Positions 14,774 to 36,910 of a stretch of 64,000 nucleotides of DNA are shown here, in pieces. The stretch's first letter is position 1. Each line of letters starts with the position of its first letter. The translations under genes were made by a program, and so were the position numbers. Source of the DNA: Rhodothermales bacterium (GTDB lineage Bacteria > Bacteroidota > Rhodothermia > Rhodothermales > JANQRZ01); NCBI GenBank assembly GCA_028284265.1, contig JANQRZ010000006.1:207610-271609 (forward strand), written 5' to 3'. Below the pieces are notes generated by a model. The model saw only the letters and a program-made list of their open reading frames with translations. It was not told the origin of the DNA and made no database searches.

Positions 14774-17206
14774 TCAGTCGTAGCGGAGAGATTTGACCGG
14801 ATCGGCGAGGGCAGCCCGGACGGCGCGGAGGCTGATGGTCAGCAGGGCGATGGCGAGCGCCAGCCCGCCCGCGAGCAGGAAGATGCCGGGGCTGATGTCG
14901 ATGCGGTAGGCGAACCCATCGAGCCAGCGGCGCAGCCCGACATAGGCCAGCGGGGCCGCGATCACGGCTGCGATGAACACGAGGCGGGCGAAGTCTTTCG
15001 AGAGCAGAAGCACAATGCTCCCGACGCTCGCGCCGAGCACCTTGCGGACCCCAATCTCGCGGGCGCGCTGATCAGCAATGAACGCCGCCAGTCCGAGTAG
15101 CCCGAGGCATGCGATGAACAGGGCCAGTCCCGACGCAATGCCGAAGAGCCGCCCCGTGCGGACCTCCGCTGTGTAGAAGTCGCCCAGCCGCTGGTCGAGG
15201 AAGTTGTACTCGAACGGGCGGTCCGGGTCGAACGCCTCGCCGATGGTCCGCAACGCGGCGATGGTGGCAGGCAGGTTCTCCGGGCTGACCCGCGCCGTGA
15301 AATAGTCGATGGATTGGACCGGGTTGTCCCACGCCCCGATCACGAGTGGACGGATTTGCTCGTGGAGCGACCGGAAGTGGAAGTCTTCGACCACGCCGAT
15401 CACGTTCAGTGTGAGGTCCGGTTCGGCCTCGCCGTCGTCCTGCGCGCCGGGAATCGTGAGGCGTTGCCCGATGGGGTTGGTCAGGCCGAGGGCGCGCACA
15501 GCGGTTTCGTTGAGGAAGACGGCGGCGGAGTCTGCCGGTCGGCTCGGGGAGAAGTTGCGGCCCGCTTGGAGCGTCACCTCGAAGGTCGATAGGAAGTCTT
15601 CGTCCGCCCCGATGAAGGCGAGCGTTCGGGGCGTCGCGTCAGCCGCGCCCTCGGGGATGGCCTCGATCTCGACGATGTCTTTCCAGTCGCCCGGCACCCG
15701 CGAGGTCGTCGAGACGCTCTGGACAGCGGGCACCGCGGCGATCTCAGCCTTGATGGCGCGGAACTGCCGCCGCACATCCCCGCTGTTGATATCGACCACG
15801 ACGAGGCCGTCGGCCTCGAACCCGAGCGGCTTCGACTGGATGTAGTCGAGCTGGCGCATCACCGTCAGCGTCGCCACGATGATGCCGATGGACAGCGCGA
15901 ACTGGCCCACGATCAAACTGCGCCGAAGCGCCGCGCCGCGCCGCTGGCCTTCCAGCCCCCGGAGCGCGAGCGCCGGACGAAACCGCGAGAGATAGAGCGC
16001 CGGGTAGCTCCCAGCCACAATGCCCACGATGAGGGCCAGCCCGACGAGCGCCGCGAGCAACCAGCCCGCCGAAACCGGCGAGAGCGTCAGCGATTTTCCT
16101 GCAAGTGTGTTGAACGCCGGGAGGACGAGCGCGACCAGCCCGATAGCCGCCGCGACGGATACGCCCGATAGCAGCACCGATTCGCTCAGGAACTGCCCTG
16201 CGAGTTGCCCCCGGTGTGCGCCGAGGGCCTTGCGTACCCCGACTTCCCGCGACCGCCGCATCGAGCGTGCCGTCGCGAGGTTCATGTAGTTGATCGAGGC
16301 GATGAGGAGGACGAAGAGCGCAATCGCCGAGAAGACGTAGAGGTAGGTGATCGGGCGCTTGTCGCGGTTGAACACATCCTCGATCTCGCCCGAGCCGAAG
16401 TGGATGTCGGCGAGGGGCTGGAGGGTGATTGCCTCCGTCGTGGCCTCCTCGGTCTGGTGCCGGTCCAGCATCCCCGCAAGTCGGGCCTCGACTACCGGAG
16501 CCGACTGGGCCTCGTCGAGCGCGACGTAGGTAAGGAATGAGCGGGAGTTGGGCGTCCAGTTGGCCGCGTAGTCGTTCCACCACCGGGTCTCGGTGGCAAA
16601 CGTGGCTGCCGAGAACAGCATGGAGAACGTGAGGTGCGAGTTGGCGGGCGGGTCGCGCAGCACTGCCGTCACGGTCATCGCTCCGAAGCCTTCCACCTCG
16701 ACCGTTTCGCCGATTGGGTCTTCGTCGCCAAAATATTGCCGTGCCGACGACTCGGTGAGGACGATGCTGTGGGGCGTGTCGAGCGCGGCGGTCGTGCCCT
16801 GCATCAACTCGAATCCATCGAACACATCGAAGAAACTCGGCTCGGCCACGAGGTAGTCGCCCACGTAGGCGCGCTGCTCACCGCGCTCGACGGTGAAGCG
16901 CCACAGGCTGATGAGCCGCGTCGCGGCGGCAACCTCGGGCACCTCATCCACGAGCGCCACGCTCACAGGCCCCGCCGTCGCGGCTATGAGTTGGTCGCCG
17001 AGATCCGGCGTGGCGCGGGTCTCGACCACGCGGAAGGTCCGGTCCGACGCCTCGTGGAAGCGGTCGAAGCGAAGCTCGTCGAGGACGTACAGCCCGATCA
17101 GCAGGCAACACGCCACACCGACGGTGAGGCCCGCGACGTTGATGAACGCATAGCCTTGGTCCCGGCGGAGCGCACGGAGGGCCGTTATGAGATAGTTCTT
17201 CAGCAT
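14774..17206 (-). CDS. duplicated FtsX/MacB-type ABC permease (paralogue 1)
   Basis: 810 aa. N-terminus MLKNYLITALRALRRDQGYAFINVAGLTVGVACC. Two FtsX modules (INYMNLATARSMRRSREVGVRKALGA...; GLLGLAAFIADQRAREIGVRKVLGAS...). C-terminus ADPVKSLRYD. Confidence 0.9.
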   Translation of the reverse strand: MLKNYLITALRALRRDQGYAFINVAGLTVGVACCLLIGLYVLDELRFDRFHEASDRTFRVVETRATPDLGDQLIAATAGPVSVALVDEVPEVAAATRLISLWRFTVERGEQRAYVGDYLVAEPSFFDVFDGFELMQGTTAALDTPHSIVLTESSARQYFGDEDPIGETVEVEGFGAMTVTAVLRDPPANSHLTFSMLFSAATFATETRWWNDYAANWTPNSRSFLTYVALDEAQSAPVVEARLAGMLDRHQTEEATTEAITLQPLADIHFGSGEIEDVFNRDKRPITYLYVFSAIALFVLLIASINYMNLATARSMRRSREVGVRKALGAHRGQLAGQFLSESVLLSGVSVAAAIGLVALVLPAFNTLAGKSLTLSPVSAGWLLAALVGLALIVGIVAGSYPALYLSRFRPALALRGLEGQRRGAALRRSLIVGQFALSIGIIVATLTVMRQLDYIQSKPLGFEADGLVVVDINSGDVRRQFRAIKAEIAAVPAVQSVSTTSRVPGDWKDIVEIEAIPEGAADATPRTLAFIGADEDFLSTFEVTLQAGRNFSPSRPADSAAVFLNETAVRALGLTNPIGQRLTIPGAQDDGEAEPDLTLNVIGVVEDFHFRSLHEQIRPLVIGAWDNPVQSIDYFTARVSPENLPATIAALRTIGEAFDPDRPFEYNFLDQRLGDFYTAEVRTGRLFGIASGLALFIACLGLLGLAAFIADQRAREIGVRKVLGASVGSIVLLLSKDFARLVFIAAVIAAPLAYVGLRRWLDGFAYRIDISPGIFLLAGGLALAIALLTISLRAVRAALADPVKSLRYD

Positions 17207-17227
17207 GGCGATGGCGTGTGGTGTGGC

Positions 17228-17500
17228 TTATTCGGGGACCGCGTCCTCCTGTTGCGCTCGCAGCCGGAACATCACCGGCACGCGCTCTGCCGTCGGCGTG
17301 CCGATCTGGACGAGCAGCCACTCCTCGCCGTGGCTCGCGATGAACTCGCGCAGCGCCTCGACCCGCGACGGGTTGTCTTCCGGCCACTCCAGCGTTTCGA
17401 CGCGGTACTGCACGCGCTGCTTCTGGCCGTCGATCACGACGTCTACGTCGATCGTGCGGGTCTGGTCAATCGGGGGAATGGGGACGCAAATCTGACTCAT
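17228..17500 (-). CDS. hypothetical 90-aa protein (no signal peptide)
   Basis: Compact ORF lying 21 nt upstream of the permease and 30 nt downstream of the repeat-protein gene. Composition looks coding. No family recognised. Confidence 0.5.
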   Translation of the reverse strand: MSQICVPIPPIDQTRTIDVDVVIDGQKQRVQYRVETLEWPEDNPSRVEALREFIASHGEEWLLVQIGTPTAERVPVMFRLRAQQEDAVPE

Positions 17501-17530
17501 CGGGATCAGGCGTTTGGTGAGCGGTAAGGG

Positions 17531-19351: not shown

Positions 19352-19357
19352 GGCGGT

Positions 19358-20800
19358 TTAGTTGTCTTCTGCTAGGGTGCCCATGATGGCCGGGCCGATC
19401 TCTTCGGCGATGGGCGGGTCGAAGTTGGCGAGTACGAGCACCGTGTAGCCCGACTCGAAATCTGATTCCCATGTCGAGTTGAGGCCCGGTGCGCCTCCGG
19501 CCCGACCGAAGGCAGCATCGGGTTGCCTTTCGGGATCGTAGTCGGCTAGGAAGAGGCGTGTCATCGCCGGGCTAAGAAGTCGGTGGTCAAGGAGCGCTCG
19601 CTCGAAGCGGAGTAGGTCTTCGGCGGTGGCATAGCCGCCGCCTGCGGGTGTGCCGCGAGGGCCGAGACCATCCGGCAGTGGCTCGGCATAGCCGGGTTCG
19701 CTTCGCTGGGTGTAAGGCACCGCGAGGTTCGGCGCATCGCGCCAGTACGAGTCCGTGTTCTCCATGCCAGCAGGTGTATAGACATGCTCCCGCACGAAGT
19801 CGTAGTACGACTCGCCGGATACGCTTTCGACGATCCCACCGAGCACCTCGTAGCCGACGTTGCTGTACTGCCACTGCGTGCCCGGCTCGAAGTCCAGTGG
19901 GATGTCACGTAGGAACGCGAGGTAGTCGTTGATCTCACGAAGCTCCGTTCGCTGCGCGAGGTAGACGGGATGGTCCCAGTAGTGTCCCCAGCCGGAGCGG
20001 TGCTGGAGCAGGTGCCGCGTCGTTACTCGGTCTGCGACCTCATCGGGGAAGCCGTCGAGGTAGGTGCCGATGGGCGCATCGAGATCGAGCTTACCCATCT
20101 CGGCGAGCTTGAGGGTGGCAACGCCGGTGATGAGCTTGTTGAGCGAGCCAATGTTGAAGCGCGTGTCGAGGGTGTTGCGCTGCCCCTCGGCTTTGTTCGC
20201 CCAGCCGTAGGCCTCGCTAAAGATCACCTCCCCGTGCCGCGCTACAAGCACGACGCCGGAGAAAGCCTCATCGGTCTCGGCCTGTTCTAGGTAGGCGTTC
20301 ACCTCGTCGAGGCTACTGAACTGAATGCCCTCGTTCTCCCCGGCAGCTTCTACTTGGAATCCACGGATCGGGTGAGGCGGAGCCTCATCAACCATGAGTG
20401 TCACTTGGAAGGCCGGACCGCCTGCGGGGTTACGAACGACAAAAGACCCTTCGTATGGACTGCGCAGCTCCACGTCCATGATCTCGGCATCGCCCAAATC
20501 GTTGTGGAGCATTCTCAACATCCTGACGATCTGGTCCTCCGATACCCGAGTCTTCAGGTCGGAACTGATGGCTGTCGCGGCGAAGGCACGGTGCGTTTCT
20601 GGGTCGGGGCTACAGACCGTAGCGAAAAAGGCATTGGCCTGCGCCCCGATGGCATCAGGCGGGAGCTGGCGCATCCGGTCGCAGTCATCGCGGAGTGCTG
20701 CGAGCGACTGGTCATCAGTGTAGACCGTGAAAGACAGGCTGCCGAGGGTGACAAGCAGCACGAAGAGGTAAGGCATGGTGCGAGGAGATGGCGGGAGCAT
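19358..20800 (-). CDS. beta-lactamase-fold serine hydrolase (class C/DD-peptidase-like) with an extra N-terminal domain
   Basis: SxxK motif (FNIGSLNKLITG) and YxN motif (QYSNVGYEVLG). The start is trimmed to the Met at 20800 (alternative 20776) because the ORF-track extension to 20944 runs through the promoter/UAS module. Confidence 0.8.
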   Translation of the reverse strand: MLPPSPRTMPYLFVLLVTLGSLSFTVYTDDQSLAALRDDCDRMRQLPPDAIGAQANAFFATVCSPDPETHRAFAATAISSDLKTRVSEDQIVRMLRMLHNDLGDAEIMDVELRSPYEGSFVVRNPAGGPAFQVTLMVDEAPPHPIRGFQVEAAGENEGIQFSSLDEVNAYLEQAETDEAFSGVVLVARHGEVIFSEAYGWANKAEGQRNTLDTRFNIGSLNKLITGVATLKLAEMGKLDLDAPIGTYLDGFPDEVADRVTTRHLLQHRSGWGHYWDHPVYLAQRTELREINDYLAFLRDIPLDFEPGTQWQYSNVGYEVLGGIVESVSGESYYDFVREHVYTPAGMENTDSYWRDAPNLAVPYTQRSEPGYAEPLPDGLGPRGTPAGGGYATAEDLLRFERALLDHRLLSPAMTRLFLADYDPERQPDAAFGRAGGAPGLNSTWESDFESGYTVLVLANFDPPIAEEIGPAIMGTLAEDN

Positions 20801-20822
20801 AGGGGTATCTCCCGTTCCTCCG

Positions 20823-20838
20823 CGCAAGCCATATGCCG
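20823..20838 (-). promoter_or_regulatory. sigma54-type -24/-12 promoter (copy 5)
   Basis: Minus strand reads CGGCATATGGCTTGCG, with the GG-N10-GC spacing of TGGCAC-N5-TTGC. Lies 23 nt upstream of the ATG at 20800. Confidence 0.65.
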
Positions 20839-20891
20839 CCGCTGCCGTGCGCTCAAAACGGTGCGTCCGGGCACATTGAGCTATCGCCAAG

Positions 20892-20928
20892 TGTGCGTTT
20901 GCGCCCACCCGATGTGCGCAGGCGCGCA
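20892..20928 (-). promoter_or_regulatory. tandem palindromic upstream sites (putative enhancer/UAS, copy 5)
   Basis: Site A is tgtgcgtttgcgccca (20892..20907) and site B is tgtgcgcaggcgcgca (20913..20928). Their centres are 21 bp apart. The site A centre is 63 bp from the -24 GG. Confidence 0.55.
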
Positions 20929-20948
20929 GCCGACTTCGCCTCAAACCG

Positions 20949-21851
20949 TCAGGGCAGGTTCACCAAGCGGTCCAGATCGATCTGGTAGATGTCTGAGTTG
21001 TTGCCCGCGAGGTGGGCATAGAAGAGGTACCGACCATCGGGGGAGAACGCAGGCGTCCACTCGTAGTCTGCCGTGTTGATTGTGTCTCCCAGATTGGCGA
21101 CGGATGACCACGCCCCGTCCTCATTGTAGACCACGAACAGGTCGCCTCGTCCCTGCCCCCCTTCGCGCTCCGAGTAGAAGATGATGAAGCGCTCCTCCGG
21201 GTCCACGATGGCCTCGCCATCGGTGGCCTCACTGTTGAAGGGCACTATCACTGGTTCGGCATAGTGTCCCTCCACCAACGCCGCCCGGTGGATATCGACG
21301 CCGCCCGGTCCCCCGGCTCGGTTGGAGTGGAAGTAGAGGTCGCCCTTCGCCGTCGTGTGGGGATGGCTGTCGATGCCGTCGCCGTTGAGGGGTGCGGGTA
21401 GGTGCTGGGGCGTGCCCCAGCCGTCGTCCGTTCGCTCGACAAACCAGAGGTCGTTGTGCGAGCGTTCGCCTGTGTCATCGACAGGCCGCTTCGAGGCGAA
21501 GTAGAGCCGGTCGCCGTCGAACGACGGATACTCGTCGCTGTACTGACCGGAGAACGGAAGCACCGTCGGTTCTTGCCACGCGCCCTCTGCGAAGTGGGAG
21601 ACGTAGAGGGCAGGTGTGTCTCGCCACGATGCGCGCCGGGTGAAATAGAACGTCCGTCCGTCCGGCGAGAACGTCGGGCCGTACTCGATGGCGTCTGTGC
21701 TGATGACGCCGGGTGCGAAGAGCAGCGGCTCCTCCAACGTTTCGGCGGTCTGGTACGGATGAGGCTGTGCTACGGCGTTGCAGCACACCAAAAACGCGAC
21801 GAGCGTGGCAATCCCAAGAGGCTGCGAAATCGCACGGTGGAAGGCGGGCAT
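20949..21851 (-). CDS. TolB-like/PD40 beta-propeller repeat secreted protein
   Basis: Signal peptide plus repeated F(S/T)PDG(R)..(Y)F motifs (TFSPDGRTFYF, PSFDGDRLYFAS, AFSPDGRYLFYA). Confidence 0.7.
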   Translation of the reverse strand: MPAFHRAISQPLGIATLVAFLVCCNAVAQPHPYQTAETLEEPLLFAPGVISTDAIEYGPTFSPDGRTFYFTRRASWRDTPALYVSHFAEGAWQEPTVLPFSGQYSDEYPSFDGDRLYFASKRPVDDTGERSHNDLWFVERTDDGWGTPQHLPAPLNGDGIDSHPHTTAKGDLYFHSNRAGGPGGVDIHRAALVEGHYAEPVIVPFNSEATDGEAIVDPEERFIIFYSEREGGQGRGDLFVVYNEDGAWSSVANLGDTINTADYEWTPAFSPDGRYLFYAHLAGNNSDIYQIDLDRLVNLP

Positions 21852-21880
21852 AGGGATAGATGTTTGAAAGCAAAGATGGG

Positions 21881-22354
21881 CTAGTCGTCCAGCGTCTCGG
21901 AGAGCTGGATGGTGTTTCCGTCAGGATCACGGATTTGGATCAGGCGCAGGTCGTGGGCCGGGAAGTCGATGGCTCTGGGCCGCTCCCCGGTGGCGGCCTC
22001 TACACGGTCGGCGATGACGTCCACATCGGGCACCCAGAACCCGACCTTGTAGAAGCCGAGATCCCGGTCTACGTTCGGGGCCTCAGCACGCCAGATCAAC
22101 TCGACGAACAGGTGCTCGCTCGTCAGGTTGATGATGCGCGCTGTGCTGTCGTCGGCGGTCCAGCGGTCGTGCTCCGCCAAGCCGAACGCCTGGCTGTACC
22201 AGTCAGCCGACTTGTCTATGTTCTCCACGAGCACAGCGAAGAACTGACGTGCACTGATCTCGGACACCCACGGCTCGGCCTGCTGCGCACTCGCTGCCGT
22301 GCTAGCGAACAGCACCAGTAGCAAGCAGTGGAGTACTCGGAGTGATGTAGCCAT
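21881..22354 (-). CDS. VOC/glyoxalase-family protein with signal peptide
   Basis: 157 aa, N-terminal MATSLRVLHCLLLVLFASTAASAQ. Glyoxalase-like beta-alpha-beta pattern, with C-terminal IQIRDPDGNTIQL typical of VOC proteins. Confidence 0.6.
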   Translation of the reverse strand: MATSLRVLHCLLLVLFASTAASAQQAEPWVSEISARQFFAVLVENIDKSADWYSQAFGLAEHDRWTADDSTARIINLTSEHLFVELIWRAEAPNVDRDLGFYKVGFWVPDVDVIADRVEAATGERPRAIDFPAHDLRLIQIRDPDGNTIQLSETLDD

Positions 22355-27183: not shown

Positions 27184-29574
27184 TTATTCGTAGCGAAGCG
27201 CTTTGACCGGGTCGGCGGTCGCGGCGCGGAGGGCTTGGGTGCTGACCGTCACAAGCGCGAGGAGAAGCACAAGCGCACCCGCGATCACGAAGGGGAGGAG
27301 ACCCACGTCGATCCGGTAGGCGAAGCCGTCGAGCCAGCGCTCGGCAGCGAACCACGCCAGCGGCGCGGCCACCACGAAGCCGATCCCGACGAGCCGGAGG
27401 AAGTCCACCGAGAGCAGCCCGATGATGCTTGCCACGCCCGCGCCGAGCACCTTGCGGACGCCGATCTCCTTCGTCCGCCGCTCCGCCGTGTAAGCCGCCA
27501 GCCCGAGGAGGCCGAGGCACGCCACGAGAATGGCGAGCACGGCGAAGAGGCCGAGCGTCTGCATCAGGCGGCGGTCGGACTGATAGAGTTGGGCGAAGGT
27601 GTCATCGAGAAACTGGTACTCAAACGGATAGCGCGGCTCGAACTGCGCCCACGTCGCCTCTAGGTGCGCGAGCGCGCCCGCCACATCGTCTCCGGCGAGG
27701 CGCACAGTCAGGCTACCGTTGCTGCCGTCGAGCGCCATGAACAGCGGGGCTACCTCTTGATACATCGCCGCGATCTGGAAGTCCTCAACCACGCCGATCA
27801 CCGTGCCCTCGTCGATCTCGCCGGGCATGTCGAAGCGCTTGCCGACCGCGTCGGTCCAGCCGAGGCTGCGGACCATCGCTTGGTTGAGCACGATGGCACT
27901 GGAGTCTGCCGGTCGGGCGGGGTCGAAGAAGCGTCCCTCAGCGAGGGTTAGCCCATATGTCTCGATCAGGTCCGTGTCATCGAGAAAGAGTCCGGCCGCC
28001 GTCAAGCCTTCATCCTCTGGACGCCCCTCGGGAACGACGGTGTGTGTCGAGAACCCTTGGCCGGGGACGTTGTTGGTGAGGGTCGCGTGCGTGATGCCGG
28101 GATGTCGCAACGCTTCGGCCTTGAATGCAGCGGCCTGATCGCCAATGTCGGTTCTGCCCGTCGGTAGCGTGACGAGGTGGTCGCGGTCATACCCGGGGTT
28201 CTCATCCAGCACGAATTGCATCTGGCTGTAGACGAGAAACGTACCTGCCAACAGCGCAATCGAGGCGGCGAACTGAGCCGTGACGAGCACCTGCCGGAAC
28301 CGCCGCCCGCCGAAGGTTTGGCTCCCTTTGAGTATCCGCGCCGGGCGGAACGCCGAGAGCACGAACGCCGGATACGTCCCCGCCGCGAGGCCAACTAATA
28401 ACCCCAGCCCCGCGAGCGCGATCAGCACCGGCGGATCGGTCCACGCGAAGGCGGGCATGGCTTTGCCGACCAGTTGGTTGAACGCAGGCCGCACTGTCTC
28501 GACGAGGACCAGCGCTAGGCCAAGCCCGAGACCCACGAGCAGCAACGCCTCGCTGAGAAACTGGCCGATAAGCTGGGGCCGCCGCGCACCTACCGACTTC
28601 CGCACGCCGACCTCGACCGCCCGCCGACTGGCCCGCGCCGTGGAAAGGTTCATGAAGTTGACGCACGCGATCAGCAGGATCAGCAGGGCGACGACACTGA
28701 GCACATAGACGTAGGCCCGGTTGCCTTGCACCATGCTCCGCTGGTAGAGGATGTCCATCGAGCCGAGGTAGATGTCGCCGAGCGGCTGGAGGTAGAGGCG
28801 GTACTGGTCGGCGCGTTCGGCGAAGTGCTCGGTCATGAAGCCCGGCAGCTTAGCTTCGAGCGCCGCCGGATCGGCGTCGGGGCGGAGCAGCACATAGGTA
28901 TAGATCGACTGCGGACGCCATATCGTGAGCCAGTTGAAGTCCAGTCCGCCGTTGCCCGGCACCACGCTCGACCACGAGACGAACGAGCCGTACTGGAGGT
29001 GCGAGTGCGGCGGTGTGTCCTCCACGATGCCCGTGACGGTATAGGTCAGGTCGCCGAACCCGAGGAGCGTCTGGCCGATGGGGTCGTCACTGCCAAAGAA
29101 GGCTTCGGCAAGGCGTTCCGTGAGCACGACTGAGAGCGGAGCTTCGAGTGCCGTCGCCGGGTCGCCGCGCAACAGGTCGAAGTCGAAGACCTCGAACACG
29201 TTGCGGTCGGCGAAGGTCACGCCGGGTACCGTCAGCGATGTCTCGCCGCGCTCAAAGAGGAGGTCGCCCCACCACGGGAGGATGCGGACGGTGGCCTCGA
29301 CTTCGGGATAGTCAGCGACGAGTTGCGGCCCCATTGGACCAGACGAGAGCGCGTGCAACTCGGTCCCGCCGGTCGGGAGCGTGTGCACCTTGTTGAGCCG
29401 GTAGAGGCGGTCGTTCTCGCTGTGGAAGCGGTCGAAGCTGCGCTCGTCGCGCACCCACAGGGCGATCAGCAGGCAGCACGCCAGCCCGACGGCCAGCCCT
29501 GCCACATTCAGCCCGGCATAGCCTTTCTGCCGACGGAGTTGACGGAGCGCGACGGTGAGGTAGTTCTTCAGCAT
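27184..29574 (-). CDS. duplicated FtsX/MacB-type ABC permease (paralogue 4)
   Basis: 796 aa. N-terminus MLKNYLTVALRQLRRQKGYAGLNVAGLAVGLACC, two FtsX modules, C-terminus ADPVKALRYE. First gene after promoter copy 4. Confidence 0.9.
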   Translation of the reverse strand: MLKNYLTVALRQLRRQKGYAGLNVAGLAVGLACCLLIALWVRDERSFDRFHSENDRLYRLNKVHTLPTGGTELHALSSGPMGPQLVADYPEVEATVRILPWWGDLLFERGETSLTVPGVTFADRNVFEVFDFDLLRGDPATALEAPLSVVLTERLAEAFFGSDDPIGQTLLGFGDLTYTVTGIVEDTPPHSHLQYGSFVSWSSVVPGNGGLDFNWLTIWRPQSIYTYVLLRPDADPAALEAKLPGFMTEHFAERADQYRLYLQPLGDIYLGSMDILYQRSMVQGNRAYVYVLSVVALLILLIACVNFMNLSTARASRRAVEVGVRKSVGARRPQLIGQFLSEALLLVGLGLGLALVLVETVRPAFNQLVGKAMPAFAWTDPPVLIALAGLGLLVGLAAGTYPAFVLSAFRPARILKGSQTFGGRRFRQVLVTAQFAASIALLAGTFLVYSQMQFVLDENPGYDRDHLVTLPTGRTDIGDQAAAFKAEALRHPGITHATLTNNVPGQGFSTHTVVPEGRPEDEGLTAAGLFLDDTDLIETYGLTLAEGRFFDPARPADSSAIVLNQAMVRSLGWTDAVGKRFDMPGEIDEGTVIGVVEDFQIAAMYQEVAPLFMALDGSNGSLTVRLAGDDVAGALAHLEATWAQFEPRYPFEYQFLDDTFAQLYQSDRRLMQTLGLFAVLAILVACLGLLGLAAYTAERRTKEIGVRKVLGAGVASIIGLLSVDFLRLVGIGFVVAAPLAWFAAERWLDGFAYRIDVGLLPFVIAGALVLLLALVTVSTQALRAATADPVKALRYE

Positions 29575-29607
29575 GGCGAGAGGTCAGGAGAGTAGGCTCC
29601 TGTCTTG

Positions 29608-29623
29608 CGCAAGCGATATGCCA
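29608..29623 (-). promoter_or_regulatory. sigma54-type -24/-12 promoter (copy 4)
   Basis: Minus strand reads TGGCATATCGCTTGCG. Lies 34 nt upstream of the ATG at 29574. Confidence 0.7.
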
Positions 29624-29676
29624 TGAGAGGCTCACCGTCCGAAGTGGCTCATGCAGCGTACCGATCCATTGCCCGG

Positions 29677-29713
29677 TGCGCGCTGCCGCACACTCGGTGG
29701 GCGCTAGCGCGCA
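29677..29713 (-). promoter_or_regulatory. tandem palindromic upstream sites (copy 4)
   Basis: Site A is tgcgcgctgccgcaca (29677..29692) and site B is tgggcgctagcgcgca (29698..29713). Centres are 21 bp apart. Site A is 63 bp from the -24 GG. The module ends 9 nt from the stop of the preceding permease gene. Confidence 0.55.
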
Positions 29714-29722
29714 GTGCCAGCG

Positions 29723-32101
29723 CTATTCGTAGCGAAGCGCTTTGACCGGATCGGTGGTGGCAGCACGGAGGGCTTGGGTGCTCACGGTCACGAGCGCGAT
29801 GGCGAGGGCCGCGAGTCCGGCGACAACGAAGACACCGGGGCCGAGGTCCACGCGGTAGGCGAACCCGTCGAGCCAGCGGCTCATCGCCAGCCATGCCAGC
29901 GGCGTCGCCACGACGAAGCCTATGAGCACGAGCCGGACGAAGTCCTTCGATAGCAGGGCGATCACACTCCCCACACTCGCGCCGAGCACCTTGCGGACGC
30001 CGATCTCCTTCGTGCGCTGCTCGGCGGCAAAGGCCGCGAGGCCGAACAGCCCGAGGCACGCGATCAGCACCGCCAGCGCGGCGAAGAGGCGAGCCAGCGC
30101 ACTCGTGCGCGCTTCGGCCCGGTAGAGATGGTTGAAGGTCTCGTCGAAGAAGGAGTACGTGAACGGATGCGCCGGGTCGAACGTCGCCCACGTCGCTTCG
30201 AGGGCGGCGAGCGTTTCCTCAACTTCGCCCGGTCGGATGCGCACCGAGACCGTCAACAGCCACCCCGGCGGCGGGATGAACAGCATGATCGGCTCGACGG
30301 TCTCGCGGAGGGACCGGTAGTGGAAGTCTTTCACGACGCCCACCACTGCCCCAACTGGTCGGTCTATCGCGGGCATCGCAATGGTCTCCGAAAACGGATC
30401 GTCCCAGCCAAGCGCACGGACGGCGGTCTCGCTCACGAGGTAGGTGCTGCTGTCCGTGGCGAAGTCTTCAGAGAACCCACGCCCGGCGACGATCTCCATC
30501 TCAAACGTGTCCAGAAAGTCGGGGTCGATGACGAGCATCCGCATCTCCGGTACCTCGTCGTCTGGGACGCCGGAGGGGGTGAAGGGAATGCCCCAGTCGC
30601 CGCCTCCGGGGAGGTTGCCCGAGGCCGTCACGTCCACCACGCCGGGATGCTGAAGCAAGGCTTCCTTGAGCGTCCCGAGGCGCTCCGTGAGGGCTTGGTC
30701 CCGCACGGGGATGGTGACGATTTGCTCGGTCTGAAACCCGAGGTCGGCGGACTCGATGAACCGGACCTGCTGCTGGACCACGCCGACCGCGACGAGCAGG
30801 AACACCGACACGGTGAACTGGACCACGACGAGGCTTCGCCGCAGCCACGCCCCACCAGTCGCACTGGCGGCTCCTTTGAGCACCCGCGCCGGACGGAACC
30901 GCGAGAGGACGAACGCTGGATAGCTCCCCGCCAGCACGCCGATGCCGAATCCAGCCACGAGCAGCGCGAGCCAGAACACAGGCTCCTGAATCGGGAGGGT
31001 AAGCTCGACGCCCGCGAGTTGGTTGAACGAGGGGAGGAGCGTCTGCGTCAGGAGCAGCGCGAGGCCGAGGCTGAGTACGATGAGCAGAAGCGCCTCGCCG
31101 ATGAACTGCCGTGCGAGGGCCGTGCGCGGGGCACCGATCGCCTTGCGGACGCCCACCTCCGTCGCCCGCCGCGCCGAGCGGGCCGTCGTCAGGTTGACGA
31201 AATTGACGACCGCCATCAGCAGGACGAGCAGCGCGAGGACAGCAAACGCGGAGACATACCCGAGGTCGCCTGTCGGCCCGATCTCGCGGTGGAGGTCAGA
31301 GTGGAGGTAGATCTCTGTCAGCGGCTGGAGGTGCGGAGTGATAGCGGAGAGTCCGCCCTCGGCTGGGTTTTGCGCTTGGAGTGCTTCGGTTATCACGGCC
31401 TCGCTCTCCGCGAGGTCGGCGGCATCGTCGAGCAGGAGGTAGGTATAGAATTGCGTCCGATTCCATAGCGTCGGCATCTCGGACGTATCCGACGCGAGCG
31501 AGATGAGATAGGAAAACGAGAAGTGGGAGGTAGTCGGTGGATCTTTCAGGATGCCCGTCACCCGGTACGTCTCGTCGTTGTTGAGCACCAGCGACTGCCC
31601 GACGGGATCGGCCTCGCCGAAGTAGCGAGCGGCGAGCGTTTCGGTGAGGACCATCGTATTCGGCTCCGTGAGCGCCGTCGTGGCATCACCCTGTACGAAC
31701 TCGAAGCTGAACACATCGAAGACATTCCCGTCGGCGAAGAGGCCACCTGCCTCATACGCCTGCACGTCGCCTCGCTCGAAAAGCTGGCTATTGAGCAGCC
31801 GGAACCGCGTCATCGTCTCCACCTGCGGGACCGCGTTGAGGACGGTTGGCCCCCACGGGCCGGGCACTTTCGCAAGGCCGGGGTCCCCGCCTCCATAACT
31901 TGCCTCCTCGTCGAAGATGGCGAGCCGGACGATGCGGTCCTTGTTTGCATGGTGCTGGTCGTAGCTCAGTTCGCCATAGACATAGAGCAGGATCGCCAAG
32001 CAGCACGCCATCCCCACGGCCAGCCCGGTTACGTTGAGGAGCGCGTAGCCTTTCTGGCGACGCAGATTGCGAAGGGCAACGACGAGGTAGTTCTTCAGCA
32101 T
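29723..32101 (-). CDS. duplicated FtsX/MacB-type ABC permease (paralogue 5)
   Basis: 792 aa. N-terminus MLKNYLVVALRNLRRQKGYALLNVTGLAVGMACC, two FtsX modules, C-terminus TDPVKALRYE. Confidence 0.9.
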   Translation of the reverse strand: MLKNYLVVALRNLRRQKGYALLNVTGLAVGMACCLAILLYVYGELSYDQHHANKDRIVRLAIFDEEASYGGGDPGLAKVPGPWGPTVLNAVPQVETMTRFRLLNSQLFERGDVQAYEAGGLFADGNVFDVFSFEFVQGDATTALTEPNTMVLTETLAARYFGEADPVGQSLVLNNDETYRVTGILKDPPTTSHFSFSYLISLASDTSEMPTLWNRTQFYTYLLLDDAADLAESEAVITEALQAQNPAEGGLSAITPHLQPLTEIYLHSDLHREIGPTGDLGYVSAFAVLALLVLLMAVVNFVNLTTARSARRATEVGVRKAIGAPRTALARQFIGEALLLIVLSLGLALLLTQTLLPSFNQLAGVELTLPIQEPVFWLALLVAGFGIGVLAGSYPAFVLSRFRPARVLKGAASATGGAWLRRSLVVVQFTVSVFLLVAVGVVQQQVRFIESADLGFQTEQIVTIPVRDQALTERLGTLKEALLQHPGVVDVTASGNLPGGGDWGIPFTPSGVPDDEVPEMRMLVIDPDFLDTFEMEIVAGRGFSEDFATDSSTYLVSETAVRALGWDDPFSETIAMPAIDRPVGAVVGVVKDFHYRSLRETVEPIMLFIPPPGWLLTVSVRIRPGEVEETLAALEATWATFDPAHPFTYSFFDETFNHLYRAEARTSALARLFAALAVLIACLGLFGLAAFAAEQRTKEIGVRKVLGASVGSVIALLSKDFVRLVLIGFVVATPLAWLAMSRWLDGFAYRVDLGPGVFVVAGLAALAIALVTVSTQALRAATTDPVKALRYE

Positions 32102-32108
32102 GGGGTTC

Positions 32109-34538
32109 TCATTCGTAGCGAAGCGCTTTGACTGGATCAGTCGTAGCCGTGCGGAGGGCCTGGATACTTACGGTTGCTAGGGCAACGAGGAGAGCGAGCG
32201 CTCCGGCCAGCAGGAAGACGCGGGGGCCGAGGTCGATGCGAGCTGCGAAGCTGTCGAGCCACTGCCGCATCGCGAGGTAGCCCACGGGCGCGGCGATAGC
32301 GATGGCGATGCCGACCAGCACGACGAAGTCTTTGGAGAGCAGCAGCACGAGTTGCGCCGCCGAGGCTCCCAGCACCTTGCGGATGCCGACCTCTTTCGTC
32401 CGCCGGGCCGCTGCGAGGGTTGCCACGCCGAACAAACCGAGGCCCGCGATGAGCACAGCGAAGAGAGCTCCGTAGCCGATGATCTGGCTCCACCGCTCCT
32501 CGCTCTGGTAGAGTTGGTCCATGTCAGCATCAAGGAAGCTGTACTGGAACGGCACGTCGTGGGTGAGACTTGCCCACGTAGCGCGCAGTTGGTCCAACGT
32601 TGCCGGTATCGCATCGGGCTGGATGCGGACCAGCACGTTCAGCACCGGGTCGCTCGACGTGGTGTAGAGCACGGCGGGTGCAACCTCCGCCTGCAAGGCC
32701 TCGAAGTGGAAGTCCCGGACCACCCCGACAATCGTCGGGTTTTGCAGACCGCCCCACTCGACCGGAAGCTGCCGCCCGACCGGGTTGTCCCAGCCGAAGT
32801 CGCGCGCGAGGGCTTCATTGACGAGGATGCTGCTCGTCGAATCGCTGGCGCGTTGCGGGTCGAGGTCGCGGCCTTGGATCAGGTCCATGCGGAGGGTTTC
32901 GAGGTAGTTGTCCGCGATACGCAGCGACACGACTTGCTTCAGCTCGCCCTCGTACCGGAAGCCACGCCGCCAGAGGCCGCGCCCGAAGGCGAAGTTGGAG
33001 CCGCTCACGCGGTCGATGGTCGGCTCGGCCTCGGCGAGCGAGCGGTAGCGGTCGAGCACGGTGTCGCTGTCCAGCCCGCGCGTCGGGATGACGACGACCT
33101 GCTCGCCCTGATAGCCGAGGTTGTGCGTCCGCAGGTGGCGAAGCTGCTGCGCCATCACGAGCGTGCTCACGATCAGGAATACCGAGAGGGTGAATTGCGC
33201 CGTCACCAGTCCATTCGCCAGCAGGCTGCGTCCGCCGACCTGCGCCCGGTTGCGCAGCGAGGCTACCGGCTGGAGGCGGGCCAACACGAGCGCCGGGTAG
33301 CCGCCCGCGATGAGGCTTGTCATGGCGAGCAAGACGAGCAGCGCGCCCCCTGCCCACAGCCCTTCAACTGCTCCGAAGTGTAGCGTCTTCCCGGCCAACT
33401 CATTGAAGACCGGCAGGAAAAGTGCAGCCAAGCCGATGCCGATGCCGAGGGCTAGCGCGCTCAGGAGCACGGCCTCGCCCCAGAACTGCGCGGCGAGTTG
33501 GCGGGGCTGCGCGCCCATCGCCTTCCGCACGCCGACCTCTTTCGCTCGCCGGGTCGAGCGCCCGAGAGCGAGAAGGGTGAAGTTGATGCAGGCGATCAGC
33601 AACACGGCCAGCGCGATGGCACCGAGGATGTAGGCGTAGCGCGGATCACTCGGTGGCGTGATGCCGGGGGGGACCTCCGGGTTGAGATGGATGTCGGTCA
33701 TCGGCTGGAGGCGGTAGACTGCAGGCGGGCCGTCGGTGGTCAGGACGCCGTTAGCGCGCATCTGGTCGAATATTGAGCCGAGGTGCGTTTCCATGAACTG
33801 AGGCATCTGCGTCTGCACGTTCGCAGCATCCGCTCCCTCGCGCAACATGACGTAGGTGATCGAGCGCGTTGCCCCCCAGCTATCCACGGCACGCTGCATG
33901 GCGCCGAGCCGCCGGACGAAGAGGTCGTAGGGAATCAAGACCTCGAACTGGACGCTGGAGCCTGTGGGTGGCGGAGCCGCTACGCCCGTCACGAGGAGGT
34001 CCACATAGCCCTCGCCGAGGCGCAGTTCGATCCGCTGGCCCAAAGCATCCGCCTCGCCGAAATAGCGGCGGGCCACCGACTCGGTGAGCACGACCGAGTA
34101 CGGGCCGGCGAGCGCGGTCTCCGGCCTGCCGCTCAGGAGTGGAAAGGAGAACACGTCGAAGAAAGCGGGGTCGGCAGCGAGGATGCCATCCTGCTCGACC
34201 ATCGTCTCACCGTGCCGAACGGTGAGAGCCGCATTGGGAAAGTCGAGCCTAACAAAGGCTTCGACTTCGGGGAACGTAGCCTGCATCGCAGGGCCTGCTG
34301 GAATCGGCATCGACAGTTCCCGGTCGAAGGGCGAGCTTGGCTCTACGACGTCGCGATAGAGCCGGTGGATGCGGTCAGCGTTGGTATGGAACTGGTCGTA
34401 GCTCAACTCGTCGCGCACGAACAGGAGCACGAGGAGGCAGAAGGCCAGCCCGATGGCGAGGCTGAACACGTTGATGGCCCCGAAGAGCTTCTGGCGTCCG
34501 AGTTGACGGAGCGCGGTGGAGAGGTAGTGCTTCAGCAT
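32109..34538 (-). CDS. duplicated FtsX/MacB-type ABC permease (paralogue 6)
   Basis: Start trimmed to MLKHYLSTALRQLGRQKLFG (ATG at 34538), which lies 2 nt after the stop of paralogue 7. The ORF-track extension to 34712 overlaps the upstream gene. Confidence 0.9.
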   Translation of the reverse strand: MLKHYLSTALRQLGRQKLFGAINVFSLAIGLAFCLLVLLFVRDELSYDQFHTNADRIHRLYRDVVEPSSPFDRELSMPIPAGPAMQATFPEVEAFVRLDFPNAALTVRHGETMVEQDGILAADPAFFDVFSFPLLSGRPETALAGPYSVVLTESVARRYFGEADALGQRIELRLGEGYVDLLVTGVAAPPPTGSSVQFEVLIPYDLFVRRLGAMQRAVDSWGATRSITYVMLREGADAANVQTQMPQFMETHLGSIFDQMRANGVLTTDGPPAVYRLQPMTDIHLNPEVPPGITPPSDPRYAYILGAIALAVLLIACINFTLLALGRSTRRAKEVGVRKAMGAQPRQLAAQFWGEAVLLSALALGIGIGLAALFLPVFNELAGKTLHFGAVEGLWAGGALLVLLAMTSLIAGGYPALVLARLQPVASLRNRAQVGGRSLLANGLVTAQFTLSVFLIVSTLVMAQQLRHLRTHNLGYQGEQVVVIPTRGLDSDTVLDRYRSLAEAEPTIDRVSGSNFAFGRGLWRRGFRYEGELKQVVSLRIADNYLETLRMDLIQGRDLDPQRASDSTSSILVNEALARDFGWDNPVGRQLPVEWGGLQNPTIVGVVRDFHFEALQAEVAPAVLYTTSSDPVLNVLVRIQPDAIPATLDQLRATWASLTHDVPFQYSFLDADMDQLYQSEERWSQIIGYGALFAVLIAGLGLFGVATLAAARRTKEVGIRKVLGASAAQLVLLLSKDFVVLVGIAIAIAAPVGYLAMRQWLDSFAARIDLGPRVFLLAGALALLVALATVSIQALRTATTDPVKALRYE

Positions 34539-34540
34539 GG

Positions 34541-36910
34541 CTATTCGTAGCGGAGAGCTTTGACGGGATCGGTGGTGGCGGCACGAAGGGCCTGCGTGCT
34601 CACCGTCAGCAGGGCGATGGCGAAGAGGAGCACGCCCGCGATGAGGAACGGCTCCGGCCCGAGGCCGATGCGGTAGGCGAACCCGTCGAGCCACTGGCTG
34701 AGTCCAAACCACACGAGTGGCACCGCGATCACGAAGGCGACCGCGACGAGTGCGACGAAATCTTTGGCGAGCAGCAGCACGAGGTTCGGCACCGTTGCGC
34801 CGAGCACCTTCCGTACGCCGACTTCCTTCGTCCGGCGCTCCGCCGTGAATGAGGCGAGGCCGAACAGCCCAAGGCAGGCGACGAAGATGGCGAGGAAGGC
34901 GAAGATGCTCACGATCCGCCCGAGCTGCTCCTCGTTGCGGTAGAGTCGGTCGTACACGTCATCGAGGAAGCGGTACGAGAATGGGCGGTGTGCAGCGAAC
35001 TGGCCCCACACGGCTTCGAGATGGTCCATGCCGGCCCGCGTGTCGCCGGGCGCGAGGCGGACGGCGAGATGGAACACGTTGCCGGGGTCGTACCAGATGG
35101 CGAGTGGCTCGATTTGCTCGTGGAGCGAGCGGAAGTGGAAGTCCTTCGCCACACCGATCACCTCGCCCCAGCGCGAGTCCACCGCCACGCGCCGCCCGAT
35201 GGCCTCTGTCGGCGTCCAGCCGAGCCGTTCGACCGTCGTCTCATTGATGACGAACTGGTAGTTGGCTGAGTCCGGTTCGGGCGGTGTCGCGGGGAAGCCA
35301 CGTCCAGCCACGAGCGTTAACCCTAGCCCATCCGTCACGTTCGGATCAGAAGGGAGACCCTTGATAAGAAACCCCTCATCTTCGCCCATGCCTTCCGTGC
35401 GGAAGCCGGAAGTCCAGCCTAGCTGGCCGGGAACCTGGTTAATACCAGTCGTGGCAACTATCGCTGGACTCTGGGTGATGGCATTCTGCATCGCGGTAAC
35501 CTGTTCCTGCAGGATCGAGTCGGAGAGGGGGAGCACCACGAGGTGCTCCTTGTCAAACCCGAGTTGCTGTGCATTCAGGTACCTAAGCTGGCTCATCACC
35601 ACGAGCGTCCCGGCGATGAGGAACGCTGAGATACCGAACTGGAGCACGACGAGGCTCTTCCGCAGCCACGATGAGCCGGAGGATGTGGTACCCCGTCCGC
35701 GAAGCACGCGCGCCGGTTGGAAGCCGGAGAGGTAGAGCGCTGGGTAGCTTCCTGCCACCACACTCACGACGAGGAAGATGCTGACGATCAGCGCGACGAG
35801 TCCCGGCTCGGCGAGCGTCCCAAAGGTCAGCGCCTTGCCGCTCAGTTCATTAAACCACGGCAGCCCGATCCCGACGAGCGCCACAGCCAGTCCCAACCCG
35901 GCTAGTGTGAGCAGCGCCGACTCACTGAAAAACTGCCCGACGAGCTGCCCGCGGAACGCCCCGAGTGACTTCCGCAGGCCGACCTCCTTCGCCCGCTGCC
36001 CGGCGCGTGCCGTGGCGAGGTTCATGTAGTTGATGCACGCGATCAGGAGAATCAGCAGCGCTACCGTCGTGAAGCCGATCACATAGGTCATATCGCCTGT
36101 CGCGTCGATGTCGTAGGCGATGTCGCTGGCGAGGTGGATGTCTGGTAGTGGCTGGAGTGTGAGGATGCGCGAGTGCTCGCCTGCTGACCTCCGTTCCGCA
36201 ATGAACGCATCGATCTTCGCCTGCAATGGGGCGGCGGCGGTGGCACTCGGCAGGCGAATGAAGGTGAAAAAGTTGGCTGAGCCCCACTGCTCGTTGTTGG
36301 CCCAGTGCTCCCGCGAGGCAAATGAGGCGAGGAAGTCGAAGCGAAAGTGCGAGTTTGTGGGCACGTCCGCCATCACGCCCGTCACCTCGAACTCTTGGTC
36401 GTTGTTTCGGATGATGGTCTGCCCGACGGGATCGGTGTCGCCGAAGAACTTCTCCGCCGTTGATTCGGTCAGCACGACGGTGTTGGGTCGGGTCAGCGCT
36501 GTCTGTGCGTTGCCTGCCAGCAACTCGAACCCGTCGAAGACCTCGAAGAACGTCGAGTCGGCGAAGTAGAAGCGGTTATCGTCGAAGATGCGCCCGCCTG
36601 CCCGAACGACTCCGCCATGTGCCTCGATCCGCGTGGTTGTCTCCACCTCCGGAAACTCGCGCCTCAGGAGCGGGGCCACGATGTTCGGACTGATAGCGAT
36701 CGTTGCATCGAGTTGGGGAACGACCATGTTGACGCGGTAGACGGCGTCGGCGTCCTCGTGGAAGCGGTCGTAGCTCAGTTCATCGCGGACGAAAAGCAGC
36801 AGAAAGAGGCAGCACGCGACGCCGACAGCGAGGCCGGTGACGTTGAGCGCGGCGTAGCCGGGCTGACGGCGAAGGGTGCGGAGGGCGATGCGGAGATAGT
36901 TGAGCAGCAT
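34541..36910 (-). CDS. duplicated FtsX/MacB-type ABC permease (paralogue 7)
   Basis: Start trimmed to MLLNYLRIALRTLRRQPGYAALNVTGLAVGVACC (ATG at 36910). The ORF-track extension to 37063 runs through the promoter/UAS. Confidence 0.9.
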   Translation of the reverse strand: MLLNYLRIALRTLRRQPGYAALNVTGLAVGVACCLFLLLFVRDELSYDRFHEDADAVYRVNMVVPQLDATIAISPNIVAPLLRREFPEVETTTRIEAHGGVVRAGGRIFDDNRFYFADSTFFEVFDGFELLAGNAQTALTRPNTVVLTESTAEKFFGDTDPVGQTIIRNNDQEFEVTGVMADVPTNSHFRFDFLASFASREHWANNEQWGSANFFTFIRLPSATAAAPLQAKIDAFIAERRSAGEHSRILTLQPLPDIHLASDIAYDIDATGDMTYVIGFTTVALLILLIACINYMNLATARAGQRAKEVGLRKSLGAFRGQLVGQFFSESALLTLAGLGLAVALVGIGLPWFNELSGKALTFGTLAEPGLVALIVSIFLVVSVVAGSYPALYLSGFQPARVLRGRGTTSSGSSWLRKSLVVLQFGISAFLIAGTLVVMSQLRYLNAQQLGFDKEHLVVLPLSDSILQEQVTAMQNAITQSPAIVATTGINQVPGQLGWTSGFRTEGMGEDEGFLIKGLPSDPNVTDGLGLTLVAGRGFPATPPEPDSANYQFVINETTVERLGWTPTEAIGRRVAVDSRWGEVIGVAKDFHFRSLHEQIEPLAIWYDPGNVFHLAVRLAPGDTRAGMDHLEAVWGQFAAHRPFSYRFLDDVYDRLYRNEEQLGRIVSIFAFLAIFVACLGLFGLASFTAERRTKEVGVRKVLGATVPNLVLLLAKDFVALVAVAFVIAVPLVWFGLSQWLDGFAYRIGLGPEPFLIAGVLLFAIALLTVSTQALRAATTDPVKALRYE

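Follow-up and report, generated by a model that had tools for sequence, protein, structure and literature searches.

Fused double-FtsX permease arrays in a Rhodothermales genome as candidate subunits of a MacAB-like pump with a shared ATPase pair

Fused double-FtsX permeases have long been annotated as 'orphan permeases of unknown function', and are present in tens of copies in some Bacteroidota genomes. Here, we focus on twelve such permeases (P01 to P12) encoded in a 64-kb stretch of DNA from a Rhodothermales bacterium (contig JANQRZ010000006.1 of assembly GCA_028284265.1, positions 207,610 to 271,609), which is referred to at its full length as the window. The window is chromosomal DNA of 65% GC and includes housekeeping genes (sdhABC, citrate synthase and RNase E/G). 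Comparison with other genomes shows a conserved cassette order, consisting of a HlyD-type membrane-fusion protein (MFP), an ATP-binding cassette (ABC) ATPase termed A2, a variable number of permeases and a second ABC ATPase termed A1, that is found across Rhodothermales, Bacteroidota, Gemmatimonadota and other phyla. We propose, with a probability of roughly 0.55, that the window permeases are interchangeable membrane subunits of one MacAB-like type VII pump with a shared, probably heterodimeric, ATPase pair.

The best-matching annotated family is ADOP (TIGR03434), whose family description has the genes essentially never beside an ABC ATPase. Published examples include ten highly translated 'ADOP' paralogues clustered within 42 kb, with ATP-binding genes nearby, in Psychroflexus torquis (PMC3914696), 28–33 ADOP-annotated copies in Dyadobacter genomes (PMC11573002) and HAAS/PadR-coupled FtsX-PCD fusions in Acidobacteria (PMC11237479), the last of which are of a sub-type different from the permeases of the window. 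ADOP is the top NCBIfam match of the window permeases, with scores of 285–337 bits against a cutoff of 622.3, and by sequence they are best described as ADOP-like rather than ADOP. Full-length duplicated FtsX/MacB_PCD domains, large paralogous families and few ATPase genes are common to both. The differences are that the lineage is Rhodothermales, that the arrays are physically linked to A1, A2 and MFP genes, so that they are not truly orphan, and that the window permeases have no HAAS or PadR association. Nor is the ATPase always distant, since A1 lies near P01 and the arrays of relatives are bracketed by A2 and A1. The family is very large, comprising 23,553 clusters at 50% identity (E ≤ 1e-30). 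Many members (for example P0360, P0120 and P0368) carry 70–92 extra N-terminal residues, giving proteins of 865–900 aa, and may represent the HAAS/PadR-coupled sub-type; the proteins of the window are without this extension.

Among characterized transporters, MacB, LolD, YbbA and FtsE are type VII systems with homodimeric nucleotide-binding domains (NBDs). The window permeases resemble those of MacAB-TolC in their FtsX fold of four transmembrane (TM) helices, in the MacB periplasmic core between TM1 and TM2 and in the TM2-TM3 coupling helix, and the likeness extends to their partners: an NBD of the MacB/LolD class and, in relatives, a HlyD-type adaptor at the head of the operon. In MacB, however, the NBD is fused N-terminally to a homodimerizing 4-TM half, whereas here the NBDs (A1 and A2) are separate and the permease is a fused 8-TM chain; the permease gene is also amplified, so that a cassette contains from 6 to over 12 of them, and no TolC gene is seen nearby. 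The darobactin exporter DarBCD combines a fused double-FtsX permease (777 aa) with an MFP and a MacB-type ATPase (PMC8442675). DarB is the second-best NCBIfam match of the window permeases (70–115 bits) and DarD is the top match of A1 (237 bits), but these scores fall far below the NF038008 and NF038007 equivalog cutoffs (700 and 375 bits); moreover, DarBCD has one permease, one ATPase and linkage to a RiPP gene cluster, and no such cluster is seen in the window. No fused two-FtsX permease other than YbbP, of the YbbAP-TesA system, has a solved structure, and both that system and the one in the window have hydrolase genes alongside. YbbP has 10 TM helices and another periplasmic layout, compared with 8 TM helices in the window permeases; the TM-score between YbbP and a model of P05 is 0.48 at 15% sequence identity, and the YbbP family NF041854 matches one window protein only, at 19 bits against a cutoff of 999. 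YbbAP further differs in pairing a YbbA homodimer with one permease, and it is known to work with a hydrolase (PMC12646458).

Sharing of an ATPase has a precedent outside this superfamily. In group II energy-coupling factor (ECF) transporters and in the MsiK/MsmK systems, a single ATPase module powers many exchangeable membrane subunits that confer specificity; these differ from the window's system in being importers of unrelated folds, and we know of no type VII or MacB-type system for which ATPase sharing has been shown. A search of the literature, whose searchable part is incomplete, yielded no description of an MFP-A2-permeases-A1 cassette, of its two ATPase classes or of the sigma-54 modules detailed below. 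The family is already known from annotation as ADOP-like, and it is the cassette logic that appears undescribed.

The seven permeases P01 to P07 are encoded by uninterrupted minus-strand open reading frames (ORFs) of 788–811 aa, and five more paralogues lie at 52426–64000, the last truncated by the end of the window (table 1). All 12 ORFs are intact. In Pfam searches each of the seven proteins has two stretches above the gathering score for FtsX (PF02687), and MacB_PCD (PF12704) is matched at 106–133 bits, in two stretches in six proteins and in one stretch in P05; none of the seven contains an ABC_tran domain. Hydropathy and an AlphaFold2 model agree on 8 TM helices in the layout [TM1-PCD-TM2-4] x2, with periplasmic domains of about 240 aa each by hydropathy. 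The model, built for P05 from a 67-sequence alignment (pLDDT 88.8, pTM 0.85), has two alpha/beta periplasmic domains (residues 46–280 and 452–652) and short cytoplasmic helices (313–321 and 697–705) in the TM2-TM3 loops, which are the conserved loops; it is at these positions that MacB-type transporters have their NBD-contacting coupling helices. Foldseek matches the model to YbbP, MacB, LolC/E, BceB and HrtB with a probability of 1.00, and also to the periplasmic domain of a Porphyromonas gingivalis permease (3is6); YbbP (9ge6_A, E 3.6e-20) is the sole full-length match. All top structural matches of this predicted fold thus belong to the MacB (type VII ABC) superfamily.

Conservation is unevenly distributed along these proteins. 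Pairwise identity among the 12 paralogues is 37–47%, with no close pairs, and the two halves of one permease are only about 25–28% identical to each other; the internal fusion is therefore much older than the expansion of the paralogues. Identity between paralogues reaches 57% in the N-terminal helix, 66% and 72% in the two TM2-TM3 cytoplasmic loops and 74% in the C-terminal helix, or 61.5% for the cytoplasmic elements pooled, compared with 51% in the TM helices and 31–32% in the periplasmic domains. The parts expected to touch an ATPase have therefore stayed much the same, and those that face outward have diverged. These results bear out much of the original prediction, made from the DNA sequence alone, which had described seven paralogues without an ATPase domain as covalent pseudo-dimers of a MacB/LolCE-type permease, had noted by eye the conserved cytoplasmic and weakly similar extracytoplasmic segments, and had read them as consistent with old duplications and with diversification of substrates or partners.

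The genes that could power these permeases emerge from comparison between genomes. A scan of one genome per species gave 28 loci with an A1 orthogroup whose members are 57–82% identical to the A1 of the window, the next ABC ATPases being no more than 49% identical; it spans Rhodothermales, Bacteroidota, Gemmatimonadota, Acidobacteriota, Calditrichia, Planctomycetota and Kapaibacteriota. At no fewer than 16 of the 28 loci, fused permeases of about 800 aa are encoded less than 10 kb from A1, and in Bacteroidota and Rhodothermales they typically form co-directional arrays of three to four or more that end at A1. A2 is a second ATPase type that recurs in the A1 loci and is 45–52% identical to A1. 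Scanning metagenomes with the permease alignment as the seed gave 80 loci (1.05 Mb, about 205 permease genes, arrays of up to eight), in which an A1-type gene always follows the last permease (6 loci) and an A2-type gene always precedes the first (7 loci). An MFP homologue is found directly upstream of A2 in all A2 loci for which upstream sequence is available, some 22 in number.

Three relatives with counterparts of P12 illustrate this order, MFP-A2 or A2 preceding the P12 counterpart by two to four permease genes. In the close relative L163 (P12 orthologue 85% identical), a HlyD-family MFP is followed by A2, a gene for a 128-aa protein, three permeases and the P12 orthologue, and then by a permease, orthologues of P11 and P09, a PF00144 hydrolase gene and a further permease. 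The 128-aa protein (L163 2118–2504) has a signal peptide and no Pfam match, and has no homologue in the other loci fetched. In L165 (P12 orthologue 73%), a divergent pair of genes for a histidine kinase and a sigma-54 response regulator precedes MFP, A2, two permeases and the P12 orthologue; a PIN toxin-antitoxin pair comes next, and then no fewer than four further permeases. In L164, on a finished 3.67-Mb chromosome, A2, six permeases including a P12-like permease (51%), a PIN toxin-antitoxin pair and A1 form a complete array, and its A1 is 82% identical to that of the window. The PIN pair lies on the opposite strand inside the array in both genomes (L164 14979–15628, L165 12497–13140), directly after the P12 orthologue in L165 and one permease further on, just before A1, in L164.

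Neither an MFP homologue nor a second MacB-type ATPase is present within the window, the only other ABC ATPase (45596–46504) being part of an ABC-2 system; no outer-membrane partner was seen among the window ORFs examined, although no dedicated TolC/OEP search of the window was made. The window has neither MFP nor A2 because it ends inside the array: in the relatives with P12 orthologues (L163 and L165), MFP-A2 is two to three permeases upstream. The genome of the window does have an A2 orthologue, P0236, which is encoded on a 457,999-bp contig, and P05 and P12 are also recorded on a 457,999-bp contig; A2 thus appears to lie on the contig of the window, just beyond its end. The original prediction of a single MacB/LolD-type ATPase and no membrane-fusion partner accordingly holds within the window but not for the cassette. 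Its suggestion that the proteins may act as mechanotransducers, in the manner of FtsEX or LolCDE, rather than classical efflux pumps loses ground, since the MFP upstream of A2 in relatives makes a classical MacAB-like tripartite pump the more likely mode of action.

A1 and A2 are distinguished by their motifs. Top matches of A1 are DarD among NCBIfam models and, among sequences of the Protein Data Bank, MJ0796, the MacB NBD and LolD; its gene lies 878 bp downstream of P01. A hierarchical split into two clusters did not separate A1 from A2, and grouping by identity together with a neighbour-joining tree gave a monophyletic A1 and a paraphyletic A2. The residue following LSGGQQQ is Arg in 20 of 20 A2 sequences and never Arg in A1 (n = 33; Leu in 30, Ile in 2), and the D-loop position is Asp in all 20 A2 sequences and never Asp in A1 (His in 18, Asn in 14). 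The A1 of the window has LSGGQQQL and GNLHS in place of the canonical Arg and Asp. In seven loci (L011, L016, L021, L023, L024, L025 and L027) A2 and A1 are neighbouring genes with at most one permease alongside. Because A1 is without the Arg and Asp that A2 keeps, and because of this adjacency, an A1/A2 heterodimer with one NBD for each half of the fused permease is the most economical reading. The original suggestion to model each permease with two copies of the A1 product is not supported, as the residues missing from A1 point to an A1/A2 pair.

A reading that we consider unlikely is that there are two separate homodimeric ATPases: A2 with the MFP would power the adjoining permease or permeases as an efflux pump, while an A1 homodimer would power another subset that includes at least P01 and is possibly adaptor-free. 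The Walker A Lys, the Walker B Asp-Glu with its catalytic Glu and the H-loop His are kept in both classes, the known type VII systems use homodimeric NBDs (YbbA: PMC12646458), and the arrangement MFP-A2-permease-A1-permease(s), found in L005, L008 and L020, lends itself to division into two units. Against this stand the loci in which A2 directly adjoins A1 with one permease or none, the consistent absence of two residues from A1, which would be unusual in a self-sufficient homodimer, and the Bacteroidota and Rhodothermales arrays bracketed by A2 and A1, in which no boundary between the supposed subsets is seen.

The number of ATPases is small relative to that of the permeases. The ratio was judged from the complete array of L164, with two ATPases for six permeases, and from 80 + 80 sampled loci; since there are far fewer ATPase than permease genes, the ATPases would have to be shared. 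The earlier idea that one ATPase services many permeases therefore stands as regards sharing, but not as regards number, as the conserved cassette has two distinct ATPases, one at its head (A2) and the other at its tail (A1). Sharing may also extend beyond a single array. MFP-A2-A1 is encoded with no permease in cis in L011 (Calditrichia; 7991–10658), L021 (Gemmatimonadaceae; 7611–10663) and L023 (Gemmatimonadaceae; 7676–13590), in the last case followed directly by a sigma-54 two-component system (response regulator and PAS histidine kinase). Conversely, no MacB-type ATPase is found near nine of ten metagenomic permease blocks that are bounded on both sides by at least 5 kb of other DNA. Between the window's genome and L163, A2 is 96% identical and orthologous permeases 82–85%, and most array members have no one-to-one orthologue; on these comparisons the ATPases are far better conserved than the permeases. 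It is quite possible, if somewhat short of an even chance, that the HlyD adaptor and an A1/A2 heterodimer, as a single energizing module, serve in trans at least a dozen exchangeable fused permeases, whether these are encoded in the array or as scattered 'orphans'.

The isolated permease blocks could also be taken to indicate ATPase-independent sensors or scaffolds, in the manner of some ADOP proteins that are fused to HAAS/PadR-associated signalling modules. The top NCBIfam match is to a family named 'orphan', and HAAS-FtsX/MacB_PCD fusions have been described (PMC11237479). This is nevertheless very improbable for the window permeases, which have no N-terminal extension or PadR neighbour, whose most conserved parts are the NBD-contact elements and whose arrays are syntenic with A1 and A2 genes.

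The permeases show no sign of decay, which the original prediction had named beforehand as a finding that would count against it. The ratio of nonsynonymous to synonymous substitution rates (dN/dS) relative to the L163 orthologues is 0.12 for P12, 0.23 for P11 and 0.18 for P09, with similar values in the periplasmic and TM parts, showing that these three genes are under purifying selection. GC content at third codon positions (GC3) is 0.76–0.87 in the permease genes, like that of housekeeping genes, and P05 and P12 have orthologues in other genomes that are closer than any paralogue in their own. One-to-one orthology of the window permeases with those of L002 and L164 could not be established: P11 alone has a clear partner (62%), the others being about 35–44% identical to everything, and the permease repertoire turns over quickly. 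We give hardly any credence to the notion that the paralogues are redundant or decaying, or that dedicated one-to-one ATPases are encoded elsewhere. Nothing was found in favour of it; the intact ORFs, the low dN/dS and the housekeeping-like GC3 speak against decay, as do the closer orthologues of P05 and P12 elsewhere, and the finished chromosome of L164 speaks against one-to-one ATPases.

Control of the array can be read from its few gaps. A sigma-54 consensus search gave two matches, both within the only sizeable gaps of the array, and a refined core, GGCATAT[C/G]GCTTG, matches the window exactly at five places, where 0.05 would be expected. The five are exact copies of GGCATATSGCTTG with the sigma-54 GG/GC −24/−12 spacing (TGGCAY-N5-TTGC), and all are on the minus strand, 25–36 nt ahead of the ATG of the hydrolase gene (20800), P04, P07, P08 and P11. 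For P11 the likely start is the ATG at 62153, because the GTG at 62189 falls inside the promoter. Paired palindromes, TGYGCG-N4-CGCRCA, spaced 21 nt apart, lie 70–105 nt upstream of each promoter; the window has 11 palindrome matches against 3.1 expected, and ten of the 11 make up the five pairs. The same layout of promoter and palindromes in gaps occurs in L163, L164 and L165. Intergenic gaps inside the sub-operons are 2–12 nt. Sub-operon 1 comprises the genes for the hydrolase, a 606-aa repeat protein, a 90-aa ORF, P01, a DUF4097 protein and A1; sub-operon 2 comprises P04, P03 and P02 and possibly continues through genes for a glyoxalase-fold and a PD40 protein; sub-operons 3–5 are P07-P06-P05, P08 and P11-P10-P09. 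An NtrC-type activator is the obvious candidate regulator of the modules. No gene for a bacterial enhancer-binding protein (bEBP) is found within the window, and response regulators with a Sigma54_activat domain adjoin the cassette in L005, L023 and L165. A LysR gene (37060–37962) was rejected as regulator of the array, being divergent from a hydrolase gene at 38019, and P07 has a sigma-54 module of its own. Nothing informative came from scanning for sigma-70 promoters or intrinsic terminators.

The heterodimer, the sharing of ATPases and MFP by all permeases, the efflux activity and the identity of the regulator are what we infer, and they would fit together as follows. The 12 permeases would be alternative membrane subunits of one MacAB-like envelope pump, with the cassette head (MFP and A2) expected a few genes beyond position 64000, accompanied in one close relative by a divergent sigma-54 two-component system. 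A1 and A2 would form one heterodimeric ATPase that docks on any permease present, at its strongly conserved coupling helices on the cytoplasmic side, and ATP-driven mechanotransmission would shift the two divergent periplasmic domains, which would set substrate or partner specificity, while the MFP would connect the complex with a duct in the outer membrane. From the paired palindromes, a bound NtrC-type activator would fire the sigma-54 promoter ahead of each sub-operon, such that all permeases, the beta-lactamase-family hydrolase and A1 would be induced together.

Several observations weigh against this proposal. The two permease blocks of the window are separated by about 15 kb of unrelated genes, and P01 is separated from P02 by about 5 kb. 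No TolC-like gene adjoins the MFP in the four loci examined, though tolC is often unlinked. The gene order in L005, L008 and L020 (some Gemmatimonadota and Bacteroidota) fits two separate homodimeric systems equally well. The A1/A2 heterodimer is suggested by gene adjacency and two motif substitutions, and the MFP and A2 are placed in the window's genome by synteny. A single MFP would have to fit periplasmic domains that are just about 32% identical. Lastly, internal sigma-54 promoters are rarely detected beyond Rhodothermales: their generality across Bacteroidota was not supported, with 5 of 249 upstream regions matching, nearly all of them from Rhodothermales.

The hydrolase that heads sub-operon 1 raises a further alternative, namely that the system is an extractor like LolCDE or YbbAP-TesA, in which hydrophobic or envelope-bound molecules are pulled from the inner membrane and handed to periplasmic partners, each paralogue having a partner or substrate of its own; candidate partners would be the beta-lactamase-family hydrolase, the PD40 propeller, the DUF4097 protein and the 606-aa repeat protein. 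YbbP is the top full-length structural match and YbbAP pairs with a hydrolase (PMC12646458). PF00144 hydrolases recur at arrays, that of the window has its own sigma-54 module and shares its sub-operon with P01 and A1, and DUF4097 recurs in L096, L149 and L150. We nonetheless regard an extractor as distinctly improbable. A HlyD-type adaptor is present at the cassette head wherever that is visible, which fits a trans-envelope pump; YbbP has 10 TM helices, as against 8 and two PCDs in the window permeases; and PF00144 is a very common family, so its association with the arrays may be incidental.

Table 1. Permease genes, ATPase, putative regulatory sites and neighbouring genes in the window.
Feature	Position	Strand	Evidence
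P01 permease, 810 aa, fused double FtsX/MacB_PCD	14774-17206	-	ORF, Pfam, NCBIfam, hydropathy
P02 permease	22360-24726	-	ORF, Pfam, NCBIfam, paralogue identity
P03 permease	24739-27174	-	ORF, Pfam, NCBIfam, paralogue identity
P04 permease	27184-29574	-	ORF, Pfam, NCBIfam, paralogue identity
P05 permease, basis of the AlphaFold2 model	29723-32101	-	ORF, Pfam, NCBIfam, AlphaFold2/Foldseek
P06 permease	32109-34538	-	ORF, Pfam, NCBIfam, paralogue identity
P07 permease	34541-36910	-	ORF, Pfam, NCBIfam, paralogue identity
P08 permease	52426-54813	-	ORF, paralogue identity
P09 permease, L163 orthologue 84% identical	54969-57338	-	ORF, paralogue identity, dN/dS
P10 permease	57348-59762	-	ORF, paralogue identity
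P11 permease, probable start ATG at 62153	59772-62153	-	ORF, paralogue identity, promoter position
P12 permease, C-terminal 560 of 831 aa, cut at window end (full protein P0121)	62316-64000	-	ORF
Sigma-54-type promoter core GGCATATGGCTTG, module 1, 25 nt upstream of hydrolase gene	20825-20837	-	exact motif match
Sigma-54-type promoter, module 2, upstream of P04	29610-29622	-	exact motif match
Sigma-54-type promoter, module 3, upstream of P07	36944-36956	-	exact motif match
Sigma-54-type promoter, module 4, upstream of P08	54846-54858	-	exact motif match
Sigma-54-type promoter, module 5, upstream of P11	62189-62201	-	exact motif match
Paired palindromes, putative enhancer (bEBP) site, module 1	20892-20928	.	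pattern count, alignment
Paired palindromes, putative enhancer, module 2	29677-29713	.	pattern count, alignment
Paired palindromes, putative enhancer, module 3	37022-37058	.	pattern count, alignment
Paired palindromes, putative enhancer, module 4	54925-54961	.	pattern count, alignment
Paired palindromes, putative enhancer, module 5	62267-62303	.	pattern count, alignment
A1-type ABC ATPase, MacB/LolD/FtsE class, cassette tail gene	13204-13896	-	Pfam ABC_tran, NCBIfam
DUF4097 'toastrack' protein, signal-peptide-like N-terminus, between P01 and A1	13942-14733	-	PF13349, 30 bits
90-aa ORF	17228-17500	-	called as gene in independent assembly
606-aa secreted protein, about four internal repeats of about 140 aa	17531-19351	-	no Pfam family above threshold
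Serine hydrolase of the beta-lactamase family (PF00144), heading the sub-operon that ends with A1	19358-20800	-	Pfam, 206 bits
PD40 (TolB-like beta-propeller) protein	20949-21851	-	Pfam
Glyoxalase/bleomycin-resistance-fold protein	21881-22324	-	Pfam

Several neighbouring genes merit description in their own right. PF00144 genes recur in or beside arrays in the window, L163 (19802–21295), L015 (3176–5050), L087, L093, L117 and L148; those of the window and L163 are 29% identical and non-orthologous, and the recurrence could reflect either a functional partner, as in YbbAP-TesA, or the coincidence of a common family. Weak DUF4097 homologues lie inside or beside arrays at L096 ~15440–15976, L149 47–328 and L150 312–2034. 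The 606-aa protein is encoded between the hydrolase and P01 in its sigma-54 sub-operon and has the repeat pattern 'DYGWI.DA.TRE.VW ... AGG..KNR ... LPAG.Y ... DDSHA...WNA.P....WG'. Elsewhere in the window, a separate ABC-2 system (42021–46504, minus strand) consists of a 302-aa ATPase followed by a 1192-aa fusion of ABC-2 membrane domains with an M1 aminopeptidase domain. The RNase E/G homologue (8187–11096, plus strand) has a very long low-complexity insert, rich in K/R/S/E/Q, in its N-terminal half. An ORF that runs off the window start (2–2704, minus strand) encodes a secreted protein ending with a C-terminal motif of the type IX secretion system type (…YPNPF…), and a 751-aa plus-strand ORF (278–2533) is its antisense shadow.

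The interest of this locus lies in the logic of the cassette and not in the existence of the permease genes. For proteins of an 'orphan' family, the comparative data amount to a testable proposal of how they are powered and controlled: an MFP-A2-...-A1 module, sometimes encoded without any permease, may serve many subunits of different specificity and, in Rhodothermales, appears to belong to a sigma-54 regulon. Were this true, the MacB superfamily would gain its first instance of module sharing and its first heterodimeric NBD pair, and it would be clearer which deletions or co-expressions could reveal the substrates. A module shared in trans would be a combinatorial envelope pump, a counterpart among type VII ABC exporters of the group II ECF importers, and would explain why the ADOP-like permeases, a very large family, have so long counted as 'orphan'.

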